DNA from: an uncultured Opitutales bacterium
Lineage (GTDB): Bacteria; Verrucomicrobiota; Verrucomicrobiia; Opitutales; CAYWEO01
NCBI GenBank assembly: GCA_964457855.1
Contig: CAYWEO010000002.1
Location: 9,015-73,014 of the forward strand
DNA: 64,000 nt
Direction of reading: 5' to 3'
Positions 1,055 to 63,079 of the stretch are shown here, piece after piece. A program made the position numbers and the translations under genes. The notes beneath the pieces are model-generated. The model saw only the letters and a list, made by a program, of their open reading frames with translations, was not told the origin of the DNA and did not search any database. How positions within the stretch are numbered: position 1 is the first letter of the stretch; every line of letters begins with the position of its first letter.

Positions 1055-1867
1055 TTAGTCCTCTCGGATAAACAAGTCGAACTCAGTGTCGTCTTGGTAG
1101 TCGTGGATGATCTTAACTCCCTTGAGATTTTCGATCATTGCGTGTATCAATTCTGGAGTGATGTTCGTGCCTAATATGGATATCTCTTTGAGCTTTTGAC
1201 CATATTTTATGAGATGATAGGCTGCTGCATCGCCTATGGGCGTCTTATTCACACTGAAAGACGTTATGCTTGGACCATTTTTCAGAATAGTTTCAATGTC
1301 CGAATCCTTCAGCTGCCTACTCCCATCCAAATCCAGAAATTCTATGGTGTTATCTTTGAATGCTTGAATAAGCTCACTCATATATAATTTACCAACTAAT
1401 CTCACGCGATTGCCCTTTGCCTTTTTTGGAGATGGAGCGTTGTACTTTTGTGACTCGTTCATCACTAGCGACCCATCATTGAGTTCTTTCATTATGTCTT
1501 CACATTCTGAGAATTCAGAATCTTCATCGTCGCTGTCAATAGTGCTTACATCATTGTTCGTATTATTGTTGATAGCATTGATAAGACTGAGGTTGTTGAG
1601 AACAATGAGGTTGTTGATAAGATTGAGTTTACTGCTAGGATTGAGGTTATTTATGAAGTTGTTTAGGGCTTTGATGTTATTGTCTATATTGACGCCATTG
1701 TTATTGGGGTTGTTATTGATGGTGTTGTTTCCATTAACAAAATTCCCATTGGAATTCGCATTGCGCATCATTCCGTAGCTATTCGGCATGATGAATCCCG
1801 AGCAGATGCCGACGCATGTTGCGGCAATGAAAAATTGTCTTATTGTGTTTGAGTGTAGTGTAATCAT
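1055..1867 (-). CDS. secreted Asn-rich protein with an LRR-like (leucine-rich-repeat, RNI-type) C-terminus; eukaryote-like effector candidate
   Basis: 270-aa ORF with four parts: a signal-like N-terminus (FFIAATCVGICSGFIM), a long Asn-rich low-complexity tract, an acidic patch DSDDEDSEFSECED, and a C-terminal LRR-like periodicity (LDLDGSRQLKDSDIETILKNGPSITSFSVNKTPIGDAAAYHLIKYGQKLKEISILGTNITPELIHAMIENLKGVKII). It is AT-rich by eye. Confidence 0.6.
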   Translation of the reverse strand: MITLHSNTIRQFFIAATCVGICSGFIMPNSYGMMRNANSNGNFVNGNNTINNNPNNNGVNIDNNIKALNNFINNLNPSSKLNLINNLIVLNNLSLINAINNNTNNDVSTIDSDDEDSEFSECEDIMKELNDGSLVMNESQKYNAPSPKKAKGNRVRLVGKLYMSELIQAFKDNTIEFLDLDGSRQLKDSDIETILKNGPSITSFSVNKTPIGDAAAYHLIKYGQKLKEISILGTNITPELIHAMIENLKGVKIIHDYQDDTEFDLFIRED

Positions 1868-2052
1868 AGTTGTGTCCTCTTTAGTTAAATTTGCTTCAGT
1901 TGAAACAAATAAATTGTAGTTTATGTTCGCATATGGAAGTCGCGTTTTTAAAGACTGTCAAGTCTTATTACTGATTTTTCTCACTAAAAGTCAGAAAAAA
2001 ACTTCCCTTGTTCTCTAAAACGCGATAGGATTGAGGTAACCAAGGTTGTTTT

Positions 2053-2706
2053 ATGCAAAAGTCGAATTCTGGAAAATTGTTGTTTACGTTTGTGTTAAGT
2101 GCTGGGTTTTTATGCATTTCGCTCTTCTGTTTCAGTGCGTTTTTGGCCTTCAAGCACGCTCCTCATCATGCCATGCACAATCATCACGTTCCAATGGCAT
2201 CGACTGCGCAAGAGGCGGTTGCACGTTCGTTATTTTCTGCACACAAGTCGCCTAAAGCCGACTACGCCGATAGCGCCGCACGCGCGCAAAGTTCTTTTAG
2301 ATCAAGGGTTTTCGTGCAACAATTCCCCCACTACGCCTCGCATATAGCCATTCAGGGCATTAAGAATTTCTATAACAACACCCTCACAGCTTTATGGAGC
2401 CCGCAATCGACGGATCTTTCTGTCGCGCAAGCAGTTAACGGAATAAAAGTCTTGGAAGAAACTGCCATAGCATCCCTTGCGCCGAAGGGCCCCACCCACG
2501 ATCAAGAATTGTCTCATTTCGTTAATCAATCCAACGTCTCGAGCGTTTACGTCAACGGTGACACAAGCAAAATCAGGATGAACCAAGATATGTTTTCCTT
2601 GAATGCGATCGTTCACTCCAAGAACAAGTTGCGTTTGACAGAGATTGCTCAGGACTCGATTGTTTTTACCGATGAAAATGGCTTGATATACGAAAAATCG
2701 CTGTAA
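2053..2706 (+). CDS. membrane-anchored hypothetical protein, possibly a GspC/PilP-like secretion or pilus accessory protein
   Basis: 217-aa ORF with one N-terminal TM segment (LLFTFVLSAGFLCISLFCFSAFLAF). Its stop is 2 nt before the GspF-like start, which suggests translational coupling. The function is guessed from context only. Confidence 0.5.
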   Translation: MQKSNSGKLLFTFVLSAGFLCISLFCFSAFLAFKHAPHHAMHNHHVPMASTAQEAVARSLFSAHKSPKADYADSAARAQSSFRSRVFVQQFPHYASHIAIQGIKNFYNNTLTALWSPQSTDLSVAQAVNGIKVLEETAIASLAPKGPTHDQELSHFVNQSNVSSVYVNGDTSKIRMNQDMFSLNAIVHSKNKLRLTEIAQDSIVFTDENGLIYEKSL

Positions 2707-2708
2707 AA

Positions 2709-3944
2709 ATGCCGCTTTTCCACTATTCAGCTATCGACAAGGACGGCGTCGAGAAACAAGGCACGCTTTGGTCCAAAAGTCACACAACGGTAACGAAAAA
2801 GCTGCTCGATCGTAAGTGTGTGATTATCAGCATCGAAACGTGTGATCGCAAGAGTACTTTTGTCGAAAAAATCAAGTCGTTCAGCGGTCTTTTCACGCAA
2901 CCGGTATCGAAAAAAATCCTGCTGTCATTTACGCAACAACTCACCATTCTCCTTCAATCCAAAATTCCCCTTCTCGATTCCCTGCAAATCACTCTGGCGC
3001 AAACGAAAAACGCCTCCCTAAAAATTGCTCTAGACTCCATTTTATCTCATCTGAAAAATGGGTCACGATTTTCCCAAGAATTGCAGGCTTTCCCGAAGAT
3101 TTTTGACGACTTTTACATCAGTATGGTCATTTGTGGGGAAAAATCCGGCCATTTGGAGAAGACGTTACCGAAAATCTGCGAACTCATCGAACGTCGTATT
3201 CGCACACGCAAAAGTATCCAGCTCGCAATGATTTACCCCAGCTTTGTCATCTCTCTGGCGATGACCGTAGCGTACCTGTTCATTCTGTACGTTGTTCCAA
3301 AATTCCAGGCCGTTTTCTTCCAAAATACGTCCATGAAAGTCCCTCCTTTCACGGCCTTTATCTTCGACTCAAGCCGCTGGCTGCAGGAGCATTCTCTCTC
3401 AGTACTGGTGACTGTCATCATCGTCCTGAGCGTCATTGCCCTTTTCATCCTAAAATCCTCCAATCAGGCACTTTTGAGCAACACGCTCATCAAACTGCCC
3501 TACATCGGACGCTTTTTCCAGCTGTTCACGCTCAACATTTTTTGCTACAACTTGAGCCTCTTCCTCAACAACGGAATTCCCATTCTCACTGCCCTGGAAC
3601 TCATTCAAAAGGCCATCAAATTCAAAAATTACCAGAATGCCCTCATGGCCGTTCGCGCAACCCTCAGCAACGGAATCGCCCTTTCCGATGCCCTCTCCAT
3701 CCACCACACCCTATTTCCGCCCATCACCATCCATCTCATCAAAATCGGCGAGGAAACCGGAAAATTGAACGGCATTCTCCATAAACTAGCCGAACAGTTC
3801 GAGCTCGAGTACCAACAAATGATCAAGCAATTCCTCACCCTCCTCGAACCCGCCCTCATCATCGCCCTAGCTCTCTTCATCGGCATCATGATTCTGTCGC
3901 TGTTTATACCCCTGTCGCAACTCCTGCAAAATTCCTTCGTTTAG
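2709..3944 (+). CDS. type II secretion system F / type IV pilus PilC-family inner-membrane platform protein
   Basis: 411 aa. The N-terminus is typical (MPLFHYSAIDKDGVEKQGTL), there are two T2SS-F-like repeats (FTQQLTILLQSKIPLLDSLQI ... LSLFLNNGIPILTALELI), and there are three TM segments. Confidence 0.85.
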   Translation: MPLFHYSAIDKDGVEKQGTLWSKSHTTVTKKLLDRKCVIISIETCDRKSTFVEKIKSFSGLFTQPVSKKILLSFTQQLTILLQSKIPLLDSLQITLAQTKNASLKIALDSILSHLKNGSRFSQELQAFPKIFDDFYISMVICGEKSGHLEKTLPKICELIERRIRTRKSIQLAMIYPSFVISLAMTVAYLFILYVVPKFQAVFFQNTSMKVPPFTAFIFDSSRWLQEHSLSVLVTVIIVLSVIALFILKSSNQALLSNTLIKLPYIGRFFQLFTLNIFCYNLSLFLNNGIPILTALELIQKAIKFKNYQNALMAVRATLSNGIALSDALSIHHTLFPPITIHLIKIGEETGKLNGILHKLAEQFELEYQQMIKQFLTLLEPALIIALALFIGIMILSLFIPLSQLLQNSFV

Positions 3945-3952
3945 GAATGCCC

Positions 3953-4202
3953 CGCTTTTGAGCGGCGGGTTCTTTGCGCTCGGCATCAATGCCATCACGT
4001 ACGTTAGTACGCTCAGGCATCTTGTCCTCGCGCGCTCGTCATCTTAAGCTAGATAGTTTCTAACGTTTTATAGAACTTTTCATGGAAAGTCGCATCGGGA
4101 GGCATTTTTTGGCACGTAGTGCCAAAAAATGCCTCCCGAATAAAAATTTTTAGGGGGAAGGGTTCGGGAACCCCCCTTTTTTACAAAAAAGGGGGGTTCC
4201 CG
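3953..4202. repeat. repeat locus R2: FB-alpha in reverse orientation (3953-4050), degenerate H1, H2 (4095-4139), H3 variant (4165-4202)
   Basis: CATCACGTACGTTAGTACGCTCAG apex. H2 has a 21-bp stem TCGGGAGGCATTTTTTGGCAC/GTGCCAAAAAATGCCTCCCGA. H3 is CGGGAACCCCCCTTTTTT/AAAAAAGGGGGGTTCCCG. Confidence 0.9.
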
Positions 4203-6780: not shown

Positions 6781-6951
6781 TTCGGAAAACTTTCTTTTCA
6801 GAAGAAAAGAAAAGTTTTCCGAACCTTTCAAAGAAAAGTCGCATCGGAAGGCATTTTTATGGCACGGAGTGCCAAAAAATGCCTTCCGAATAAGAGTTTT
6901 TTCAGGGGAGGTCCGGAGGGGGTTGTTTTTGCAAAAAATACCCCCTCCGGA
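6781..6951 (+). repeat. repeat locus R3: complete H1 (6781-6823), H2 (6844-6889), H3 (6912-6951) array
   Basis: Three consecutive palindromes with the conserved linkers CCTTTCAAAGAAAAGTCGCA and ATAAGAGTTTTTTCAGGGGAGG. The array fills the rlmN-MBL gap. Confidence 0.95.
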
Positions 6952-12774: not shown

Positions 12775-13084
12775 TTCCGGAGGGGGGCTTTTTAGGTTAA
12801 TTCCGGAGAACCAATTTTTTGCAAAAAAATGGTTCTCCGGGCCTCTCCAAAAAAAACTCTTAATTCGGAAGGCATTTTTTGGCACATAGTGCCAAAAAAT
12901 GCCTTCCGATACCGCTTTTCTTGTGAAAATTAGGAAAACGTCGGAACCTCTGGCGTGGCTTCTATTTCGAGATGACGGGCAGGCGCGCGCGGACGAAATC
13001 CCTGAGCGTACTAACACGTGATGGGATTGAGATCCGATGCGTAACGAACCCGCCGCTCGAAATAGAGGCTACGCCAGAGGTTCC
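12775..13084 (-). repeat. repeat locus R5: reverse-order array with H3 half plus H3 (12803-12840), H2 (12865-12909), degenerate H1, then FB-alpha (12943-13084) overlapping the xseB 3' end
   Basis: FB arms GGAACCTCTGGCGTGGCTTCTATTTCGAG (12943-12971) / CTCGAAATAGAGGCTACGCCAGAGGTTCC (13056-13084). The right arm contains the xseB stop (13069-13071) and its last 4 codons. Confidence 0.9.
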
Positions 13085-17520: not shown

Positions 17521-17689
17521 TCAGGGAAACTTTCTTTTCGGAGAAAAGAAAGTTTCCCTGACCCTTCAAAGAAAAGCATATCGAAGCGCATTTTTGTGGC
17601 ACTACGTGCCTAAAAAATGCGCTTCGAATGAAGAGTTTTTTTGGAAAGGGCCCGGGAAAACCAATTTTTGCAAAAAATGGTTTTCCCGG
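17521..17689 (+). repeat. repeat locus R7: complete H1 (17521-17561), H2 (17581-17627), H3 (17652-17689) array
   Basis: All three palindromes lie between the DUF502 start and the tRNA-Arg(CCG) 3' end. The stems carry compensated variants (TCAGGGAAAC.../...GTTTCCCTGA). Confidence 0.95.
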
Positions 17690-26892: not shown

Positions 26893-26910
26893 AAATTGTG
26901 GTTTGTAAAT

Positions 26911-27037
26911 TTGGAGAACCATTTTTTTGCAAAAAATAGGTTCTCCAAACCTCTCCCCCAAAAACTCTTATTCGGAAGGCATTTCTTTTGAAGGTTCGGA
27001 AACTATTTCTTTTCTTCGGAAAAGAAAAGTTTCCGAA
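26911..27037 (-). repeat. repeat locus R9: reverse-order H3 (26911-26948), half H2 (26971-26983), H1 (26995-27037)
   Basis: TTGGAGAACCATTTTTTTGCAAAAAATAGGTTCTCCAA. H2 is cut to one arm. H1 is TTCGGAAACTATTTCTTTTC/GAAAAGAAAAGTTTCCGAA. Confidence 0.9.
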
Positions 27038-28241: not shown

Positions 28242-28877
28242 TTAGGAGTGGGGTTCTTTTGAAGCACTTGAGTTTGCGGGTCCGCTCGAAACAACGACCG
28301 TTGCTGGGCGGATCAAGCGCTCCTTCCATTGGTAACCTAGGCGGATGGTTTGGACAACGTGATCCTCCGGGATCGTGTCGTGCGCGATGTGAGAGACGCA
28401 CTCGTGCTTCAATGGATTGAAGGGACTGTTGGCGGCCGGAGAAATGCGCTCGATCCCCCTGTTGGTAAGGAGCGATTCCAGTTGATTGTAAATGATTTGG
28501 AACCCGCTAATGACGGCTGCGTCCTCGGTCGCCTGCTTTGTAGATTGAAGCCCCATCGCGAAATTGTCGATGATCGGTAAAAGGTCCTCCGTAAGGTTAA
28601 CAAACGCGTTCTGGATCATCTCCTCACGCTCGCGGATCATGCGCTTCCGGGAATTCTCTAAGTCCGCGTACGTGCGCAGATACTTTTCCTTAAAACTTTC
28701 CGCCTCCTGCTGAAGACTCTCCACCTTTGCCAACAGCTCCGAAAGATGCGTATGATCGCCATGATGCCCCTTCCCCCCCTTCTCGTGATCGCACGCCTCA
28801 CACGTGTGCTTGTGCGTATGAGAAGAATGCTCCTTCTTGTGCGAAGAACCTTTGTCCGTAGTTTCGTGCTGTGTCAT
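28242..28877 (-). CDS. grpE: nucleotide exchange factor GrpE with a His/Cys-rich N-terminal extension
   Basis: GrpE core (YLRTYADLENSRKRMIRE ... RLIRPATVVVS). The N-terminal ~45 aa read SSHKKEHSSHTHKHTCEACDHEKGGKGHHGDHTH. Confidence 0.9.
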   Translation of the reverse strand: MTQHETTDKGSSHKKEHSSHTHKHTCEACDHEKGGKGHHGDHTHLSELLAKVESLQQEAESFKEKYLRTYADLENSRKRMIREREEMIQNAFVNLTEDLLPIIDNFAMGLQSTKQATEDAAVISGFQIIYNQLESLLTNRGIERISPAANSPFNPLKHECVSHIAHDTIPEDHVVQTIRLGYQWKERLIRPATVVVSSGPANSSASKEPHS

Positions 28878-28911: not shown

Positions 28912-29194
28912 TTCGGAAACTTTTCTTTTCAAGAGAAAAGAAATAGTTTCCGAACCTTCAAAAGAAAAGCTATATCGGAAGGCATTTTAGTTCGGCCTGT
29001 AAGGCCGAACTAAAATGCCTTCCGAATACGAAAAGAAAAGAAGAGCAAAATCGGTTTGGCGCCGTCGATTTCGAGATGATAGGCAGGCGCACGAGATCAA
29101 GATGCCTGAGCGTACTAACACGTACGTGATGGCATTGAGATCGATGTGCAACGAACCTAGCGCTCGAAATCGCTACGGCGCCAAACCGATTTTT
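28912..29194 (+). repeat. repeat locus R10: H1 (28912-28954), H2 apex variant (28975-29025), FB-alpha (29047-29194)
   Basis: FB arms AAAATCGGTTTGGCGCCGTCGATTTCGAG / CTCGAAATCGCTACGGCGCCAAACCGATTTT. The right arm ends inside the hsp20 stop codon (29193-29195). Confidence 0.9.
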
Positions 29195-29663
29195 AGGCGA
29201 TATTTATTTTACTGGGCTTCTTTATGGCGAGTTTGGGGATGGAGATAGAAAGGATACCGTTATCGTATTTCGCGACGATTTTATCTGGGGTGATGCCATC
29301 TGGGATGGAGATGGAGCGAGTGACGTAGGATTGGTAGGAGGACTCGCAGGATTTGTTTTTGCATTCTTTGTGGGCAGAGGCCTTGATGGTGAGGATGTTA
29401 TTTTCGAATTCGATGGAAACATCCTCTTTGTTGAACCCTGGGAGGGCGGCCTTTGCGATGTATTGCACATCGTCTTCGTAGAGGTCGATGGGGAAGCTCT
29501 TCATGTCGTGGGAGCCTTCGATTTCGTCGTCTAGGAAGTATTTGAACCATCTGTCGACGATGGAGAAGGGGCTTTCTTCGTGATGAAAAACGCCGAATGG
29601 ATCCATGAGTCTTCTTTCTGGATGGTTATGGTGATGATGGTGGTTATGTTTCATTAGTTGCAT
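29193..29663 (-). CDS. Hsp20/alpha-crystallin small heat-shock protein with an N-terminal His run
   Basis: Alpha-crystallin domain (AALPGFNKEDVSIEFENNILTIKA ... AKYDNGILSISIPK). The N-terminus is MQLMKHNHHHHHNHPE. Confidence 0.9.
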   Translation of the reverse strand: MQLMKHNHHHHHNHPERRLMDPFGVFHHEESPFSIVDRWFKYFLDDEIEGSHDMKSFPIDLYEDDVQYIAKAALPGFNKEDVSIEFENNILTIKASAHKECKNKSCESSYQSYVTRSISIPDGITPDKIVAKYDNGILSISIPKLAIKKPSKINIA

Positions 29664-29711: not shown

Positions 29712-29727
29712 AGCAATTCACGTGCCA
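29712..29727 (-). promoter_or_regulatory. sigma54-type -24/-12 promoter candidate for hsp20
   Basis: The minus strand reads TGGCACGTGAATTGCT, i.e. TGGCACG-N4-TTGCT. The -12 GC lies about 50 nt upstream of the hsp20 ATG (29663). Confidence 0.55.
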
Positions 29728-29787
29728 TTATATAATTGAAAAAATGAAAAGTAAAGACGTCATTTTTTTATCACAGAAGGCGCGTGT

Positions 29788-29805
29788 TGTGTCAGAATTG
29801 ACACA
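29788..29805. promoter_or_regulatory. inverted repeat TGTGTCA-N4-TGACACA, candidate activator (UAS) or operator site upstream of the hsp20 promoter
   Basis: 7-bp perfect arms centred about 70 bp upstream of the -24 element. The half-site resembles the dnaK upstream repeat (CCTGTG[A/T]CA). Confidence 0.4.
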
Positions 29806-30011
29806 GGGTGGGGCGTTTTTTCACGTATTTCGTTGAAAAACCGTTCCAAAGATTTTTTTAAAAAAAGAATTTTTCTGTTGAGTTTTTCACAGATAAGGGT
29901 TAAATGGCAGGATTTAAGTAATTAAAAAAATGTTCAGAAATCAAATTTTACGTCGAAAAGAGAAGCTTATGGAACTTGTCTTTTCACATTTTTTTAGATT
30001 AGTGTTTTGTT

Positions 30012-51695: not shown

Positions 51696-52016
51696 TCGGA
51701 AACTTTTCTGTTCCAGAACAGAAAAAGTTTCCGAACCTTCAAAAGAAAAGCGATATCGGAAGGCATTTTTTGGCACTACGTGCCAAAAAATGCCTTCCGA
51801 ACAAAGATTTTTTTGGAAAGGGTCCAGGGAAACCTATTTTTTGCAAAAAATGGTTTTTTCGGCACAAAACATCTAAAAACAACGAACCAAAGGACGCCGT
51901 AGTAAGTTCGAGATGACGAGCAGGCGCGCGAGGATTTTAACCCCTGAGCGTATTGTAATACGTGATGGGGTTGAAATTTGAGCGCAACGAACTCGCCGCT
52001 CGAAATCGCTACGGCG
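51696..52016 (+). repeat. repeat locus R17: the full four-module array H1 (51696-51735), H2 (51756-51800), H3 (51824-51862), FB alpha/beta chimera (51905-52016)
   Basis: All modules lie in canonical order between the divergent glgB and dnaG starts. The FB ends 8 nt before the dnaG ATG. Confidence 0.95.
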
Positions 52017-58605: not shown

Positions 58606-58776
58606 TTCGGAAACTTTTCTTTTCCAGAGAAAAGAAATAGTTTCCGAACCTTCAAAAGAAAAGCGTATCGAAAGGCATTTTTCTGGCATGTAATGCCAGA
58701 AAAATGCCTTTCGAATTAAGAGTTTTTAAGGGGGAGGCCCGGAGGGGGTGCTTTTTGCAAAAAACACCCCCTCCGG
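58606..58776 (+). repeat. repeat locus R21: complete H1 (58606-58648), H2 (58668-58714), H3 (58739-58776) array
   Basis: The array starts 4 nt after the mnmA stop. The H3 variant is CCGGAGGGGGTGCTTTTTGCAAAAAACACCCCCTCCGG. Confidence 0.95.
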
Positions 58777-58808: not shown

Positions 58809-58839
58809 CAACTCCTGTGACATTTTGTCACAGGAGTTG
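58809..58839. promoter_or_regulatory. perfect 14-bp inverted repeat CAACTCCTGTGACA-TTT-TGTCACAGGAGTTG, candidate activator or operator site upstream of dnaK
   Basis: Arms at 58809-58822 and 58826-58839, centred about 63 bp upstream of the -24 element. It is not part of the H/FB repeat families. Confidence 0.45.
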
Positions 58840-58885
58840 GGCGAAAATGAGTTGACGGTGGGGGATTTTGTTGTCTTATTGGATG

Positions 58886-58901
58886 TGGCACGGAAATTGC
58901 T
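58886..58901 (+). promoter_or_regulatory. sigma54-type -24/-12 promoter candidate for dnaK(-groES-groEL)
   Basis: TGGCACGGAAATTGCT, i.e. TGGCACG-N4-TTGCT. The -12 GC is only 15 nt upstream of the dnaK ATG (58915), implying a very short leader. Confidence 0.5.
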
Positions 58902-58914
58902 TTGGAGTATAATC

Positions 58915-60870
58915 ATGACAAATCGAGATTCTAAAAAAGTTTTAGGAATTGACTTAGGGACGACTAATTCCTGCATGGCGATCATGGAAGGCGGCCAGCC
59001 GGTCGTCATCCCAAATGCTGAGGGTGCCCGGACAACGCCTTCGGTGGTGGCCTTTACGAAAACGGGGGAGCGCATCGTGGGACAAGCGGCTAAAAGGCAG
59101 GCCGTAACCAATCCTGCCAACACCATTTTTTCTGCTAAGCGCTTGATTGGACGCAAGTTCAAGGAAGTGCAGAGCATTACGAAACGCCTACCGTACAAGG
59201 TTGTTGAAGGGAAAAATGGCGATGCGTTTATCGAGTGCCAGGTGGGCGGTAAGACCGAACGCTTTGCGCCAGAACAGATTTCTGCCATGGTGCTGGCGAA
59301 ATTGAAGGCCGATGCGGAAGCTTATTTGGGCGAAAATATCAAGCAAGCGGTGATTACAGTTCCCGCGTATTTCAATGATTCCCAACGACAAGCGACGAAA
59401 GATGCCGGTATGATCGCTGGCCTTGAGGTGTTGCGCATCATCAACGAACCCACAGCGGCGTCTCTTGCATACGGTCTGGACAAGAAAAAAGACGAAACAA
59501 TCGCTGTTTATGACTTGGGTGGAGGGACTTACGACATTTCCATTTTGGAAATCGGCGACGGCGTTTTCGAGGTAAAAGCGACGAATGGCGATACGTTGCT
59601 GGGCGGAGATGACTGGGATGAGGCCATTATTGCGTGGTTGGCAGACGGATTTCAAAAAGAGTATGGGATCGATTTGCGTAAAGATCCCATGGCGCACCAA
59701 CGACTTAAGGAAGAGGCGGAAAAGGCAAAAATCACCCTCTCTTCGGCTCAAGAAACCGATATCAACCTGCCTTTCATTACGGCAGACGCGAGCGGTCCTA
59801 AGCACTTGAATGTCAAGCTTTCGCGCTCCAAGCTAGAACAAATTTGCGACGCTTTACTGCAACGGACAATTGCTCCGTTTGAAGCTTGCTTAAAAGACGC
59901 GAAACTAACGACGGCGAACATCAAAGAGCTTGTGCTGGTGGGCGGTATGACGCGCATGCCGAAAGTCATCGAGCTTGCGGACCGTTTGACGGGTAAAAAT
60001 GCCAATCAAGGTGTTAATCCAGACGAAGTTGTGGCCGTTGGAGCTGCGATTCAAGGAGGCGTGCTAAAGGGAGAAGTCGGCGACATTCTTTTGCTCGACG
60101 TGACTCCACTGACGCTCGGTATCGAGACAGCCGGCGCAGTTGCCACTCCCATGATCGATCGCAACACGACGATTCCCACGAAAAAGGCCCAAATCTTTAC
60201 GACGTACGCCGACAATCAGACGGGCGTTGACATCAAGGTCCTTCAAGGAGAACGTCCGATGGCGCGTGATAACAAGCTATTGGGCAACTTCCGACTGGAA
60301 GGCCTTCCGATGGCGCAACGCGGACAACCGCAGATTGAAGTCACATTCGACATCGACGCGAATGGCATTTTGCACGTGACAGCCAAGGACTTAGGTACTG
60401 GGAAGGATCAAAAAATCACCATTACAAGCGCGTCCGGTCTGTCCAAGGACGAAATCGATAAGCTCAAACGCGAGGCCGAGAAAAATGCCGAGCAAGATAA
60501 GGTTATTAAAGAAACCATCGAGGCTAGAAACCACTTGGATTCTCTCGTTTATCACGCAGAAAAGCAGATGAGCGAGTTTGCGAGCAAGTTACCAGCAGAC
60601 AAAAAGCAGGAAATCGAAACTTCTCTTGCCGATGCAAAGAAAGTTTTGGCCAACGAAAACGCTTCTTTGAACGAGATCAAGGACGCTGAAAACGCCCTCA
60701 GTGCGAAGATTCAGGAGATCGGAAAGGCCGTCTATGCCAATGTCAATCCTCAGCAGCAGCCCGGGACCGAAGCACAGTCCTCCCAACAAGGGCAAGGATC
60801 GGCAAAAACGGAACCCAACCCAGCTGAAAAAGTCGTTGATGCTGAAGTCATTGACGAGAGTAAGAAGTAA
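58915..60870 (+). CDS. dnaK: molecular chaperone DnaK
   Basis: [28 protein letters not shown]. Start trimmed to ATG 58915 ([15 protein letters not shown]). Confidence 0.95.
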
Positions 60871-60924
60871 TTAATTTTCAACAAATATCAAAATTTTGTT
60901 ATCTAATTCAAACATTAACCAACT

Positions 60925-61233
60925 ATGAGTGTAGAAAAAATGAAAATCAAACCAATTGGAGATCGTATTCTCGTTAAGAGATTGGACGACAAGGAAGAAC
61001 AAGTCAAGGGAGGCATTATCATCCCAGATTCGGCCAAAGAGAAGCCACAAGAAGGAGAAGTGATTGCTCTTGGGACGGGACACAGGAATCAGGATGGGAA
61101 AATCACTCCCTTCGAGGTTAAGGTCGGCGATCGCGTCCTCATCAGTAAGTATGGTGGGAGCGAAGTCAAAATTGGAGACGAGAAGTATCATCTTCTTAGA
61201 GAAGAAGATATCTTGGGCGTTTTCAGTAAATAA
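60925..61233 (+). CDS. groES: co-chaperonin GroES
   Basis: [12 protein letters not shown] ... [21 protein letters not shown]. An alternative start at ATG 60940 gives MKIKPIGDR. Confidence 0.9.
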
Positions 61234-61255
61234 CTAATCAAAAAGGACAAACAAT

Positions 61256-62896
61256 ATGGCAAAACAATTATTATTTGATGAAGCAGCACGGAAGAAGATT
61301 CTAAAAGGCGTCGATATTCTCGGCAATGCCGTGAAGGTGACGCTTGGACCTAGAGGACGAAACGTCGCTATTGAGAAAAAGTTTGGCGCCCCGATGGTGA
61401 CCAAAGACGGCGTTACAGTTGCTAAGGAAATTGATCTACAGGATCCCTTTGAAAACATTGGTGCTCAGATGGTGAAGGAAGTCGCTTCCAAGACCTCCGA
61501 TAAGGCGGGCGATGGGACCACGACGGCAACCGTTTTGGCAGCAGCGATTTACCGCGAAGGCCTCAAAAATGTGGCCGCTGGGGTTAATCCCATTTACTTA
61601 AAGCGCGGCATCGACAAGGCAGTTGAGGCGATCGTCAAGGAACTCGCCAATAACAGTCAGAAAATTAACGGACGCGACGATATTTGCAAAGTGGCGACCG
61701 TTTCCGCAAACTGGGACGCCAGTATCGGTAAGATCATCGCCGATGCCATGGACAAAGTGGGCAAAGACGGCACTATCACCGTTGAAGAGGCCAAAGGCAT
61801 CGAAACATCGCTCGACGTCGTCGAAGGCATGCAATTTGACAAGGGTTATTCAAGCCCCTATTTCGTCAGCAATGCCGAGAGAATGGAATGTGTTCTTGAC
61901 GACCCTTACATCCTGATTCACGAAAAGAAAATCAGCAGTTTGAATGACTTACTGCCTTTGCTCCAAACCATCGCGAAATCCGGCAAACCTCTCTTGATCA
62001 TTTCAGAAGAAGTTGAAGGAGAAGCCCTTGCGGCCTTGGTGGTCAATAAGTTGCGCGGGACGCTCAATGTTTGCGCAGTCAAAGCTCCCGGATTCGGCGA
62101 TCGTCGGAAAGCGATCATCGAAGACATCGCAGTCTTAACCGGTGGCCGTTGTATTACGGAAGACTTGGGCGTTAAGCTCGAAAACATTCACATCGAAGAC
62201 CTCGGAAAAGCCAAGAGGGTCACTGTTGACAAAGACAACACGACCATCGTCGAAGGCTACGGAAAAGACAAAGATATCCAAGCACGCGTGAAACAAATTC
62301 GTCACCAAATCGAGGAAACCACCTCGGATTATGATCGCGAGAAATTGCAAGAACGCTTGGCAAAATTGGCAGGCGGGGTTGCCGTCATCAAAGTTGGCGC
62401 TGCGACAGAGCCAGAAATGAAAGAAAAGAAGGCTCGCGTTGAAGACGCTTTACATGCGACACGCGCTGCCGTCGAAGAAGGTATCCTTCCAGGCGGAGGC
62501 GTTGCCTTATTGAGAGCAGCAAAGGTGATTGATGCCCTGCAATTCTCCGACCCAGACGAAGCCAGCGGTGCACAAATCGTTCGCAAAACGATGTCTGCCC
62601 CTCTTCGCGAACTCTGCAACAATGCCGGAATCGAGGGCTCCGTGATCGTCGAGAAAGTTCAGGCTGGGACACCCTACGGCTACGGCTATAACGTTGCCAC
62701 AGGCCAGTTCGAAGACCTCCTCAAAACGGGTGTCGTCGATCCCACAAAGGTCACACGCTCGGCTCTGCAAAATGCAGCCTCCGTCGCAGGTCTCCTCCTA
62801 ACGACAGAGTGCGTCATTGCCGACATCCGCGAGGAAAAATCCTCCAAAGGTTCCCCAGATATGGGCGACATGGGTGGAATGGGCGGCATGATGTAA
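61256..62896 (+). CDS. groEL: chaperonin GroEL
   Basis: [12 protein letters not shown] and the C-terminal GGMGGMM tail, 546 aa. Confidence 0.97.
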
Positions 62897-62911
62897 AACA
62901 CGCCGTAGCCA

Positions 62912-63079
62912 CGGGAAAACCATTTTTTGCAAAAATAGGTTTTCCCGCACCCTTTCCAAAAAAACTCTTCATTCGGAAGGCATTTTTGAGGCACGTAGTG
63001 CCACAAAAATGCCTTCCGATACGCTTTTCTTTGAAGGGTCCGGGAAACTTTCTTTTCTTCGAAAAGAAAGTTTCCCGGA
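62912..63079 (-). repeat. repeat locus R22: complete reverse-order array H3 (62912-62947), H2 (62973-63019), H1 (63039-63079)
   Basis: It fills the convergent groEL/acpS gap almost exactly, from stop 62896 to stop 63081. Confidence 0.95.

Follow-up and report, generated by a model that had tools for sequence, protein, structure and literature searches.

The dnaK-groES-groEL chaperone operon of an uncultured Opitutales bacterium is preceded, at positions 58809-58901 of the 64,000-nucleotide (nt) stretch analyzed here (hereafter, the window; G+C content, 47%), by what is quite probably a genuine enhancer-dependent sigma-54 promoter. The dnaK and groESL genes are textbook targets of sigma-32 or HrcA. 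Because a sigma-54-type promoter and a putative activator-binding palindrome, both with superphylum-wide conservation, precede this operon, heat-shock control of its chaperones probably needs a dedicated ATP-driven activator. The features on which this reading rests are the following.

58886-58901, plus strand: predicted sigma-54 (-24/-12) promoter, TGGCACGGAAATTGCT, matching 12/12 consensus positions, with the GG at 58887-58888 and the GC at 58899-58900
58809-58839, no strand: putative upstream activating sequence, CAACTCCTGTGACA-TTT-TGTCACAGGAGTTG, a palindrome whose 14-bp arms match perfectly around a 3-nt center
58815-58833, no strand: conserved palindrome core, CTGTGACA-TTT-TGTCACAG, centered at approximately -88 relative to the predicted transcription start
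58911-58913, plus strand: predicted transcription start, placed by taking the C of the GC (58900) as -12, which would leave a 5' untranslated region of ~2-4 nt

A preliminary description of the region had reported an exact TGGCACG-N4-TTGCT element and a perfect 14-bp inverted repeat upstream of dnaK, and both were found in the sequence, letters and coordinates alike. The promoter pattern has exactly two matches in the 64 kb when both strands are searched, compared with none in 100 shuffles. The second match (29712-29727, minus strand) is located upstream of hsp20, and each site lies no more than 65 nt ahead of the start of a chaperone gene; the probability that both exact sites would fall by chance within ~120 nt upstream of two chaperone operon starts is ~4e-6. 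Chance alone would produce ~0.001 perfect inverted repeats with arms of 14 bp or more in 64 kb, a rarity that is qualified by the abundance of other long palindromes in this genome. The core pattern of the palindrome, CTGTGWCA-N3-TGWCACAG, is unique in the window, with zero occurrences expected.

Eighty dnaK loci were compared: 26 related loci, labelled Verrucomicrobiota, Lentisphaerota or Kiritimatiellia together with a few unlabelled neighbors by rank, and 54 loci from other phyla. A sigma-54-type site was counted if a GG-N10-GC element matched at least 9/12 consensus positions on the coding strand no more than 250 nt from dnaK. Such a site was present at 22/26 related loci versus 3/54 in other phyla (Fisher p ~1e-12), and the equivalent search of the opposite strand of the related loci returned only 4/26 (Fisher p 9e-7); these p values overstate the independence of the loci, which share phylogeny. 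Conservation in front of dnaK in relatives, on which the preliminary description had staked its prediction, was thus observed, and four further Opitutae-type contigs (L207-L210) likewise carry a sigma-54 element before dnaK. Among species-representative genomes, the best matches to the window DnaK came from metagenome-assembled genomes of Opitutaceae and Puniceicoccales, none above 77% identity, and the next-best matches after an identical protein in a large protein collection were at 74-76%, mostly labelled Puniceicoccales. These values indicate a divergent, Puniceicoccales-like verrucomicrobium of the Opitutae type as the source of the window. No closer relative for the dnaK upstream region was found via the protein database, where the best N-terminal fragment was 86% identical.

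In the related group, the palindrome core supplies the k-mers with the strongest enrichment upstream of dnaK. GTGACA/TGTCAC was found upstream of 18/27 related versus 5/54 other dnaK genes, TGTGACA upstream of 12/27 versus 1/54, and CTGTGAC upstream of 10/27 versus 0/54. The dyad recurs nearly letter for letter in distant lineages, for example as GTGACAtttTGTCGC in Akkermansiaceae (L026), and it has counterparts in Victivallales (L027, GCGACAtttTGTCAC), Akkermansia (L019, TGTCACactGTGACA) and locus L001 (GTGACAgcacTGTCGC); GYGACA-TTT-TGTCRC is common to L026, L027 and the window. Its distance from the -24 element varies between 54 and 112 nt across the Akkermansiaceae locus, the Victivallales locus and the window, and the dyad is therefore enhancer-like, unlike an operator. 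The location of a dyad-symmetric element at approximately -88 also fits the range of upstream activating sequences (~70-150 bp from the start). At five Opitutaceae-type loci (L003, L006, L007, L209 and L210), a LON substrate-binding-domain gene is divergent from dnaK and GTGACA-type repeats sit in the shared intergenic region; the LON-domain gene may be a member of the same regulon.

The operon and its predicted short leader

58915-60870, plus strand: dnaK, 651 amino acids, Pfam HSP70 (E = 1e-258)
60871-60924, plus strand: dnaK-groES spacer, 54 nt, lacking a sigma-54 site, a terminator-like hairpin and a controlling inverted repeat of chaperone expression (CIRCE)
60925-61233, plus strand: groES, 102 amino acids, Pfam Cpn10
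61256-62896, plus strand: groEL, 546 amino acids, Pfam Cpn60_TCP1, with an identical protein on Logan contigs L201-L205
62912-62947, no strand: long palindrome of a repeated hairpin family directly after groEL, which probably terminates the operon or marks its 3' boundary
58739-58776, no strand: another member of this hairpin family, located between the end of mnmA (58602) and the putative enhancer
58609-58651 and 58664-58708, no strand: two further palindromes between mnmA and the putative enhancer

The preliminary description had placed dnaK, groES and groEL next to one another with gaps of 54 and 22 nt (the latter at 61234-61255), had seen neither a promoter nor a CIRCE element between them, and had suggested that one promoter might drive all three genes. 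The gaps were confirmed, the spacers are free of sigma-54 sites, and CIRCE was not found in the window. The dnaK-groES-groEL order is present at 25/26 related loci (the contig of the 26th stops inside dnaK) and at 0/54 loci from other phyla, and a sigma-54 site was found in 0/25 of the related dnaK-groES spacers. Hairpins flank the operon on both sides, with none inside; the hairpin at 58739-58776 probably insulates dnaK from transcription of its upstream neighbor, identified by Pfam as mnmA. The synteny, the spacers, the flanking hairpins and contigs that span the gene junctions would all fit a single promoter for the three genes. The DnaK protein begins with a short basic extension, MTNRDSKK, ahead of the conserved part, and similar extensions are present at L002, L009 and L207.

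The junction-spanning contigs are five Logan assemblies of a related strain (L201-L205, from runs SRR21799893-SRR21799898) that encode the exact GroEL protein, are 97-98% identical to window positions 58964-62963, and cover dnaK-groES-groEL only. Four of them (L201-L204) are continuous across the dnaK-groES and groES-groEL junctions, and L205, which starts in groES, spans only the latter. Their 3' ends lie at 62909, 62941 or 62963, beside the hairpin that follows groEL. The 5' ends are scattered within the operon; none of the contigs begins further upstream than 58964, so they never reach upstream of dnaK and are uninformative for the transcription start. Illumina adapter is fused to the contig sequence at 58964 and 62909. 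These contigs may be RNA-derived assemblies of a polycistronic mRNA.

In most relatives, including L001, L003, L004, L006, L019-L021, L026 and L031, the dnaK-groES spacer contains a GC-rich hairpin that the window lacks; its possible roles are attenuation, processing, or stabilization of the mRNA so as to set the DnaK:GroESL ratio. The hairpin after groEL belongs to a family of near-perfect palindromes, CCGG[GA]..TTTTTGCAAAAA..CCGG, which are intergenic and often located just after gene ends, such as those of dnaJ and groEL (740-771, 6912-6951, 12789-12854, 17652-17689, 26910-26949, 39385-39424, 51830-51857, 58739-58776 and 62912-62947). These could be terminators or repeats resembling repetitive extragenic palindromes or miniature inverted-repeat transposable elements. 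Two more families, TTCGGAAAC..GTTTCCGAA and CG[GA]AAGGCATTTT..AAAATGCCTT[TC]CG, are represented at 58609-58651, 58664-58708, 28915-28958, 28975-29020 and 27015-27037, in tandem upstream of dnaK and within the hsp20-grpE spacer.

The preliminary description had also cautioned that the -12 GC is only 15 nt from the dnaK start codon, implying a nearly leaderless mRNA. The measurement is correct (C at 58900, ATG at 58915), and the short spacing proved to be a trait that the clade conserves and not an objection to the promoter. Across 12 Opitutae-type loci, the end of the -12 element is 11-14 nt from the start codon: the TGCT/TGCA ends 11 nt before it at L001, L003, L005, L007, L208, L209 and L210, 13 nt before it in the window and L004, and 14 nt before it at L002, L006 and L009. 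The same spacing is 26-124 nt in the other verrucomicrobial and lentisphaeral loci. Leaders predicted from this geometry are 2-4 nt in the window and 0-1 nt at six Opitutaceae-type loci, so the Opitutae-type dnaK mRNA would have almost no leader or none at all. In Akkermansia muciniphila, ~10% of the transcription starts mapped by Cappable-seq are leaderless (PMC4782308), which makes translation of such mRNAs plausible in this phylum.

The hsp20 site, candidate regulators and a possible wider regulon

29712-29727, minus strand: predicted sister sigma-54 promoter, TGGCACGTGAATTGCT, upstream of hsp20 (29663-29193, minus strand)
29788-29806, minus strand: sister enhancer-like palindrome, CTGTGTCA-ATTC-TGACACA, centered ~96 nt upstream of the predicted hsp20 start

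The second exact promoter match precedes a locus whose products were assigned by Pfam to HSP20, GrpE and DnaJ, and the accompanying dyad is the only match in the window to a version of the dyad pattern with a 4-nt spacer. In the preliminary description, the dnaK half-site was said to resemble that of hsp20, and the two chaperone blocks were proposed to share one sigma-54/activator logic. The resemblance holds in so far as CCTGTG[A/T]CA is common to both dyads, and both promoters match the same exact consensus. The central base and the spacer length do not agree: the half-sites are TGTGTCA at hsp20 and TGTGACA at dnaK, the spacers are 4 and 3 nt, and the two dyad centers are ~7.5 bp out of helical phase. 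In a relative that is ~95% identical (L206), the hsp20 promoter is identical, but the left arm of the dyad carries a G-to-C change (TGTGTCA to TGTCTCA) and lies among nine substitutions within 63 nt (L206 529-591; window ~29769-29831; alignment A1, columns 230-292); the promoter and the 130 nt further upstream are almost invariant. Each of these differences weighs against a common regulator. Moreover, hsp20-grpE-dnaJ may not be one transcript, because hairpins, three of them long, crowd the 315 nt between hsp20 and grpE. Control of hsp20 and dnaK by one shared activator is thus likely but not secure.

Both Hsp20 (window 29616-29663, MQLMKHNHHHHHNHPE...) and GrpE (window 28780-28877, ...HKKEHSSHTHKHTCEACDHEKGGKGHHGDHTH...) have unusually histidine-rich N-terminal extensions.

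A metagenome scan with GACA-N3-TGTCRC, N85-115, TGGCAY-N6-TGC, a permissive and noisy pattern, returned at least 120 matches. Among the matches listed, the genes directly downstream included three dnaK-groES-groEL operons, three hsp20 genes, three clpB genes and one J-domain gene, mixed with chance matches and other regulons (PilZ, formate-dehydrogenase-like and flagellar genes), and only the enrichment of chaperone genes is usable. Chaperone genes lie downstream of these matches far more often than expected by chance, which supports a chaperone regulon that includes ClpB. Six of the metagenome contigs (L128, L137, L172, L182, L185 and L187) have CGACAATATGTCAC, then ~97 nt, then TGGCATAATTYTTGCT before small PilZ-domain genes, apparently a separate conserved sigma-54 regulon.

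The regulators themselves were sought by motif scans for rpoN (RpoN box) and for enhancer-binding proteins (GAFTGA, Walker A). Neither was found in the 64-kb window, nor within 4-10 kb of the verrucomicrobial dnaK loci of relatives, and these results count against the proposed control; 10 kb of context from three more Opitutae-type contigs was likewise without rpoN or activator. At one Chthoniobacterales locus (L008), rpoN (RpoN box ARRTVAKYR, ~3600-3760) ends ~240 nt upstream of dnaK (4001), the gene order is rpoN-dnaK-groES-groEL, and the dnaK promoter is of the sigma-54 type. In a published survey, rpoN was present in 6/6 Opitutia and 4/4 Verrucomicrobiia genomes (PMC12316311 supplement).

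The only lead to the type of activator, an NtrC-family two-component system, comes from five Omnitrophota-type loci (L022, L030, L049, L053 and L055; ~1200-4000), in which a soluble, PAS-like histidine kinase and an NtrC-like activator (REC-AAA+-HTH_8) are followed by dnaK, with the activator directly upstream of it. The activator-dnaK spacer contains TGGCACG-N4-TTGA/TTGT and GACAC/GTGTC repeats; the GC of the -12 element is replaced by GA or GT, and no groESL follows dnaK. A different response-regulator activator (L114), preceded by GGACATTTTGTCAC and a sigma-54 site, was rejected as a candidate, its closest homologs being named Tectomicrobia/Entotheonella. The 44% identity between the Omnitrophota activator and L114 is generic similarity for this protein family. 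GACA-N3-TGTC-type sites evidently serve unrelated activators in other phyla, and this limits the evidence: the regulator cannot be told from the motif alone.

Proposed mechanism and rival explanations

We propose that sigma-54 RNA polymerase would form a closed complex at the -24/-12 element (58886-58901), while an enhancer-binding protein, as a dimer or oligomer, would occupy the 17-bp dyad TGTGACA-N3-TGTCACA near -88. DNA looping would bring the two together, and ATP hydrolysis by the activator, presumably in response to heat or unfolded protein, would open the promoter. Transcription would start at ~58911-58913, 2-4 nt before the dnaK ATG, and give a nearly leaderless polycistronic mRNA ending at the hairpin at 62912-62947. 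Given that hsp20 has a promoter of identical class and an activator site that is the same or closely related, the chaperone set would probably form one sigma-54 stress regulon in place of the sigma-32 or HrcA/CIRCE control of most bacteria.

A broader version of this model, which we put forward tentatively and with slightly less than even confidence, is that an ancient regulon of Verrucomicrobiota, Lentisphaerota and Kiritimatiellota, with a variant in Omnitrophota, uses sigma-54 and one dedicated enhancer-binding protein at GTGACA-N3-TGTCAC to replace sigma-32/HrcA for dnaK-groESL, hsp20, clpB and probably grpE-dnaJ, and that its promoter in Opitutae fires at or near the start codon. If so, stress-induced dnaK-groESL mRNA in Opitutae would have no leader, and its translation would not involve a Shine-Dalgarno sequence.

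Several observations at the dnaK promoter itself do not sit easily with this model. The GG of the -24 element is lost at L002, and at L207 the element (TGGCACGAAAATTGCT) is 28 nt before the ATG instead of 13 nt. A Shine-Dalgarno-like GGAG in the window (58904-58907) lies upstream of the predicted start and so would be untranscribed from the sigma-54 promoter, and L005 has AGGAGG and a GTG start at the equivalent place; these runs hint at an additional start further upstream. Finally, sigma-54 promoters are normally silent without their activator and have no basal activity. Such silence is awkward for essential chaperones, and a second, basal promoter may exist. The preliminary description had pointed to a possible candidate:

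58852-58857 (TTGACG), N17, 58875-58880 (CTTATT), plus strand: weak sigma-70-like candidate, which could be a basal promoter

Dual control, in which a sigma-70 promoter gives a basal mRNA containing a Shine-Dalgarno sequence and sigma-54 adds stress-induced leaderless transcripts, is kept as the main rival because the Shine-Dalgarno-like runs are usable only by transcripts that begin further upstream, although on balance we consider it unlikely. The GGAG of the window lies 7 nt before the ATG, and L005, L006 and L009 also have runs of this kind between the -12 element and the start codon; dual control would at the same time supply the basal expression that essential chaperones need and that sigma-54 promoters do not give. 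The weak sigma-70 candidate is present in the sequence, but its -10 hexamer agrees with TATAAT at only 3/6 positions, it falls below the threshold of the promoter scan, and no conserved sigma-70-like motif was seen at the equivalent place in relatives. Read-through from mnmA as a source of basal transcripts is made less plausible by the hairpins at 58609-58776, and the failure of L201-L205 to reach upstream of dnaK is a weak point in the same direction.

Elements of conventional heat-shock control were not found. CIRCE (TTAGCACTC-N9-GAGTGCTAA) was absent from the window with up to five mismatches allowed and from the 26 related loci with up to four; as controls, it was perfect in three Chloroflexi-type loci and had one mismatch in a fourth. 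No sigma-32-like CTTGAA-N13-17-CCCCAT was found upstream of dnaK, groES or hsp20 in a simple regular-expression scan, and no known RNA thermometer or leader element was detected with Rfam at gathering thresholds, which gave tRNAs only. It is very improbable that the sigma-54 match is fortuitous or vestigial, with transcription by sigma-70 and the palindrome acting as the operator of a conventional regulator like HrcA or HspR. Repressors that bind inverted repeats are common at heat-shock operons, and the palindrome does end 13 nt upstream of the putative -35 TTGACG, but a dyad-promoter distance that varies from 54 to 112 nt would be intolerable for an operator, the GG-N10-GC element is strand- and position-specific in 22/26 related loci, and the same exact sigma-54 consensus also precedes hsp20. 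A perfect TATAAT (58908-58913) with GTGGCA 17 nt upstream overlaps the sigma-54 site (span 58885-58913, 10/12 sigma-70 positions); this candidate was rejected because transcription would start within the coding sequence and the motif is not conserved. There is equally little reason to regard the palindrome as one more intergenic hairpin repeat or terminator and not a protein-binding enhancer: the genome has at least three families of long perfect intergenic palindromes and three such palindromes lie immediately upstream (58609-58776), but the dnaK palindrome is unique in the window, unrelated to those families and without a T-tract, and its core is the most enriched k-mer in distant relatives that lack these repeats.

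Placing essential chaperones behind an activator-dependent class of promoter would be a different regulatory logic, and it raises the questions of how basal expression is ensured and of what the activator senses, whether temperature, unfolded protein or a phosphorelay. With the 17-bp dyad, the -24/-12 element and the 11-14 nt promoter-ATG spacing as handles, the activator could be sought in species such as Akkermansia muciniphila or Opitutus terrae, and the ability of a sigma-54 promoter to yield a leaderless mRNA could be tested directly. The same elements could be used to predict stress regulons in uncultured verrucomicrobia and symbionts and could provide a tightly controlled inducible promoter for Akkermansia genetic tools.

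Comparison with known systems

The control proposed here would share its target genes and presumed physiological role with the sigma-32 and HrcA/CIRCE systems, but it would be positive control by an ATPase activator, unlike replacement of the sigma factor or repression. Sigma-54-dependent stress promoters are represented in E. coli by pspA (regulated by PspF) and ibpB, where a stress or small-heat-shock gene is likewise transcribed by sigma-54; there, however, this control is accessory, and dnaK and groESL remain dependent on sigma-32/sigma-70. In architecture, the dnaK upstream region resembles the NtrC-activated glnAp2 promoter, with a 7-N3-7 dyad ~90-140 bp upstream of a TGGCAC-N5-TTGCW promoter and distance-tolerant activation through DNA looping and ATP hydrolysis. 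It differs in the half-site (TGTGACA here, TGCACCA for NtrC), in serving chaperones and not nitrogen assimilation, and in a predicted start that abuts the start codon.

Full-text literature searches found no report of sigma-54 control of dnaK/groESL in Verrucomicrobia. What is already known is the prediction of sigma-54 promoters on chaperone genes in other phyla: a survey based on position-specific scoring matrices (PLoS One 2025; PMC12316311) reported predicted sites to be enriched on the GroEL, GroES, IbpA, GrpE, DnaJ, DnaK, ClpB and Lon genes of Planctomycetota and Bacteroidota. That survey placed the same promoter class before the same gene set, implying that sigma-54 governs proteostasis genes; it covered Planctomycetota, in the same superphylum, and was computational, as is the present analysis. 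Unlike the present analysis, it did not name Verrucomicrobiota or Lentisphaerota for the chaperone cluster, defined no enhancer motif or activator, and described neither the fused dnaK-groES-groEL operon nor the leaderless geometry. The GTGACA-N3-TGTCAC enhancer, the superphylum-wide dnaK-groES-groEL operon and the predicted near-leaderless geometry in Opitutae therefore appear to be the new details.

The closest experimentally studied analogue, to the extent that it is summarized in PMC9109919, is the HsfB/HsfA phosphorelay of Myxococcus xanthus, a two-component system that activates the heat-shock gene lonD (Ueki and Inouye 2002). According to that summary, HsfA is an NtrC-like enhancer-binding response regulator that directly activates a heat-shock gene, and the pair resembles the Omnitrophota-type layout of histidine kinase, response-regulator activator and dnaK. 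Its target as given there is the Lon protease and not dnaK/groESL, and it belongs to another phylum; its likeness to the Omnitrophota-type layout is one of arrangement.

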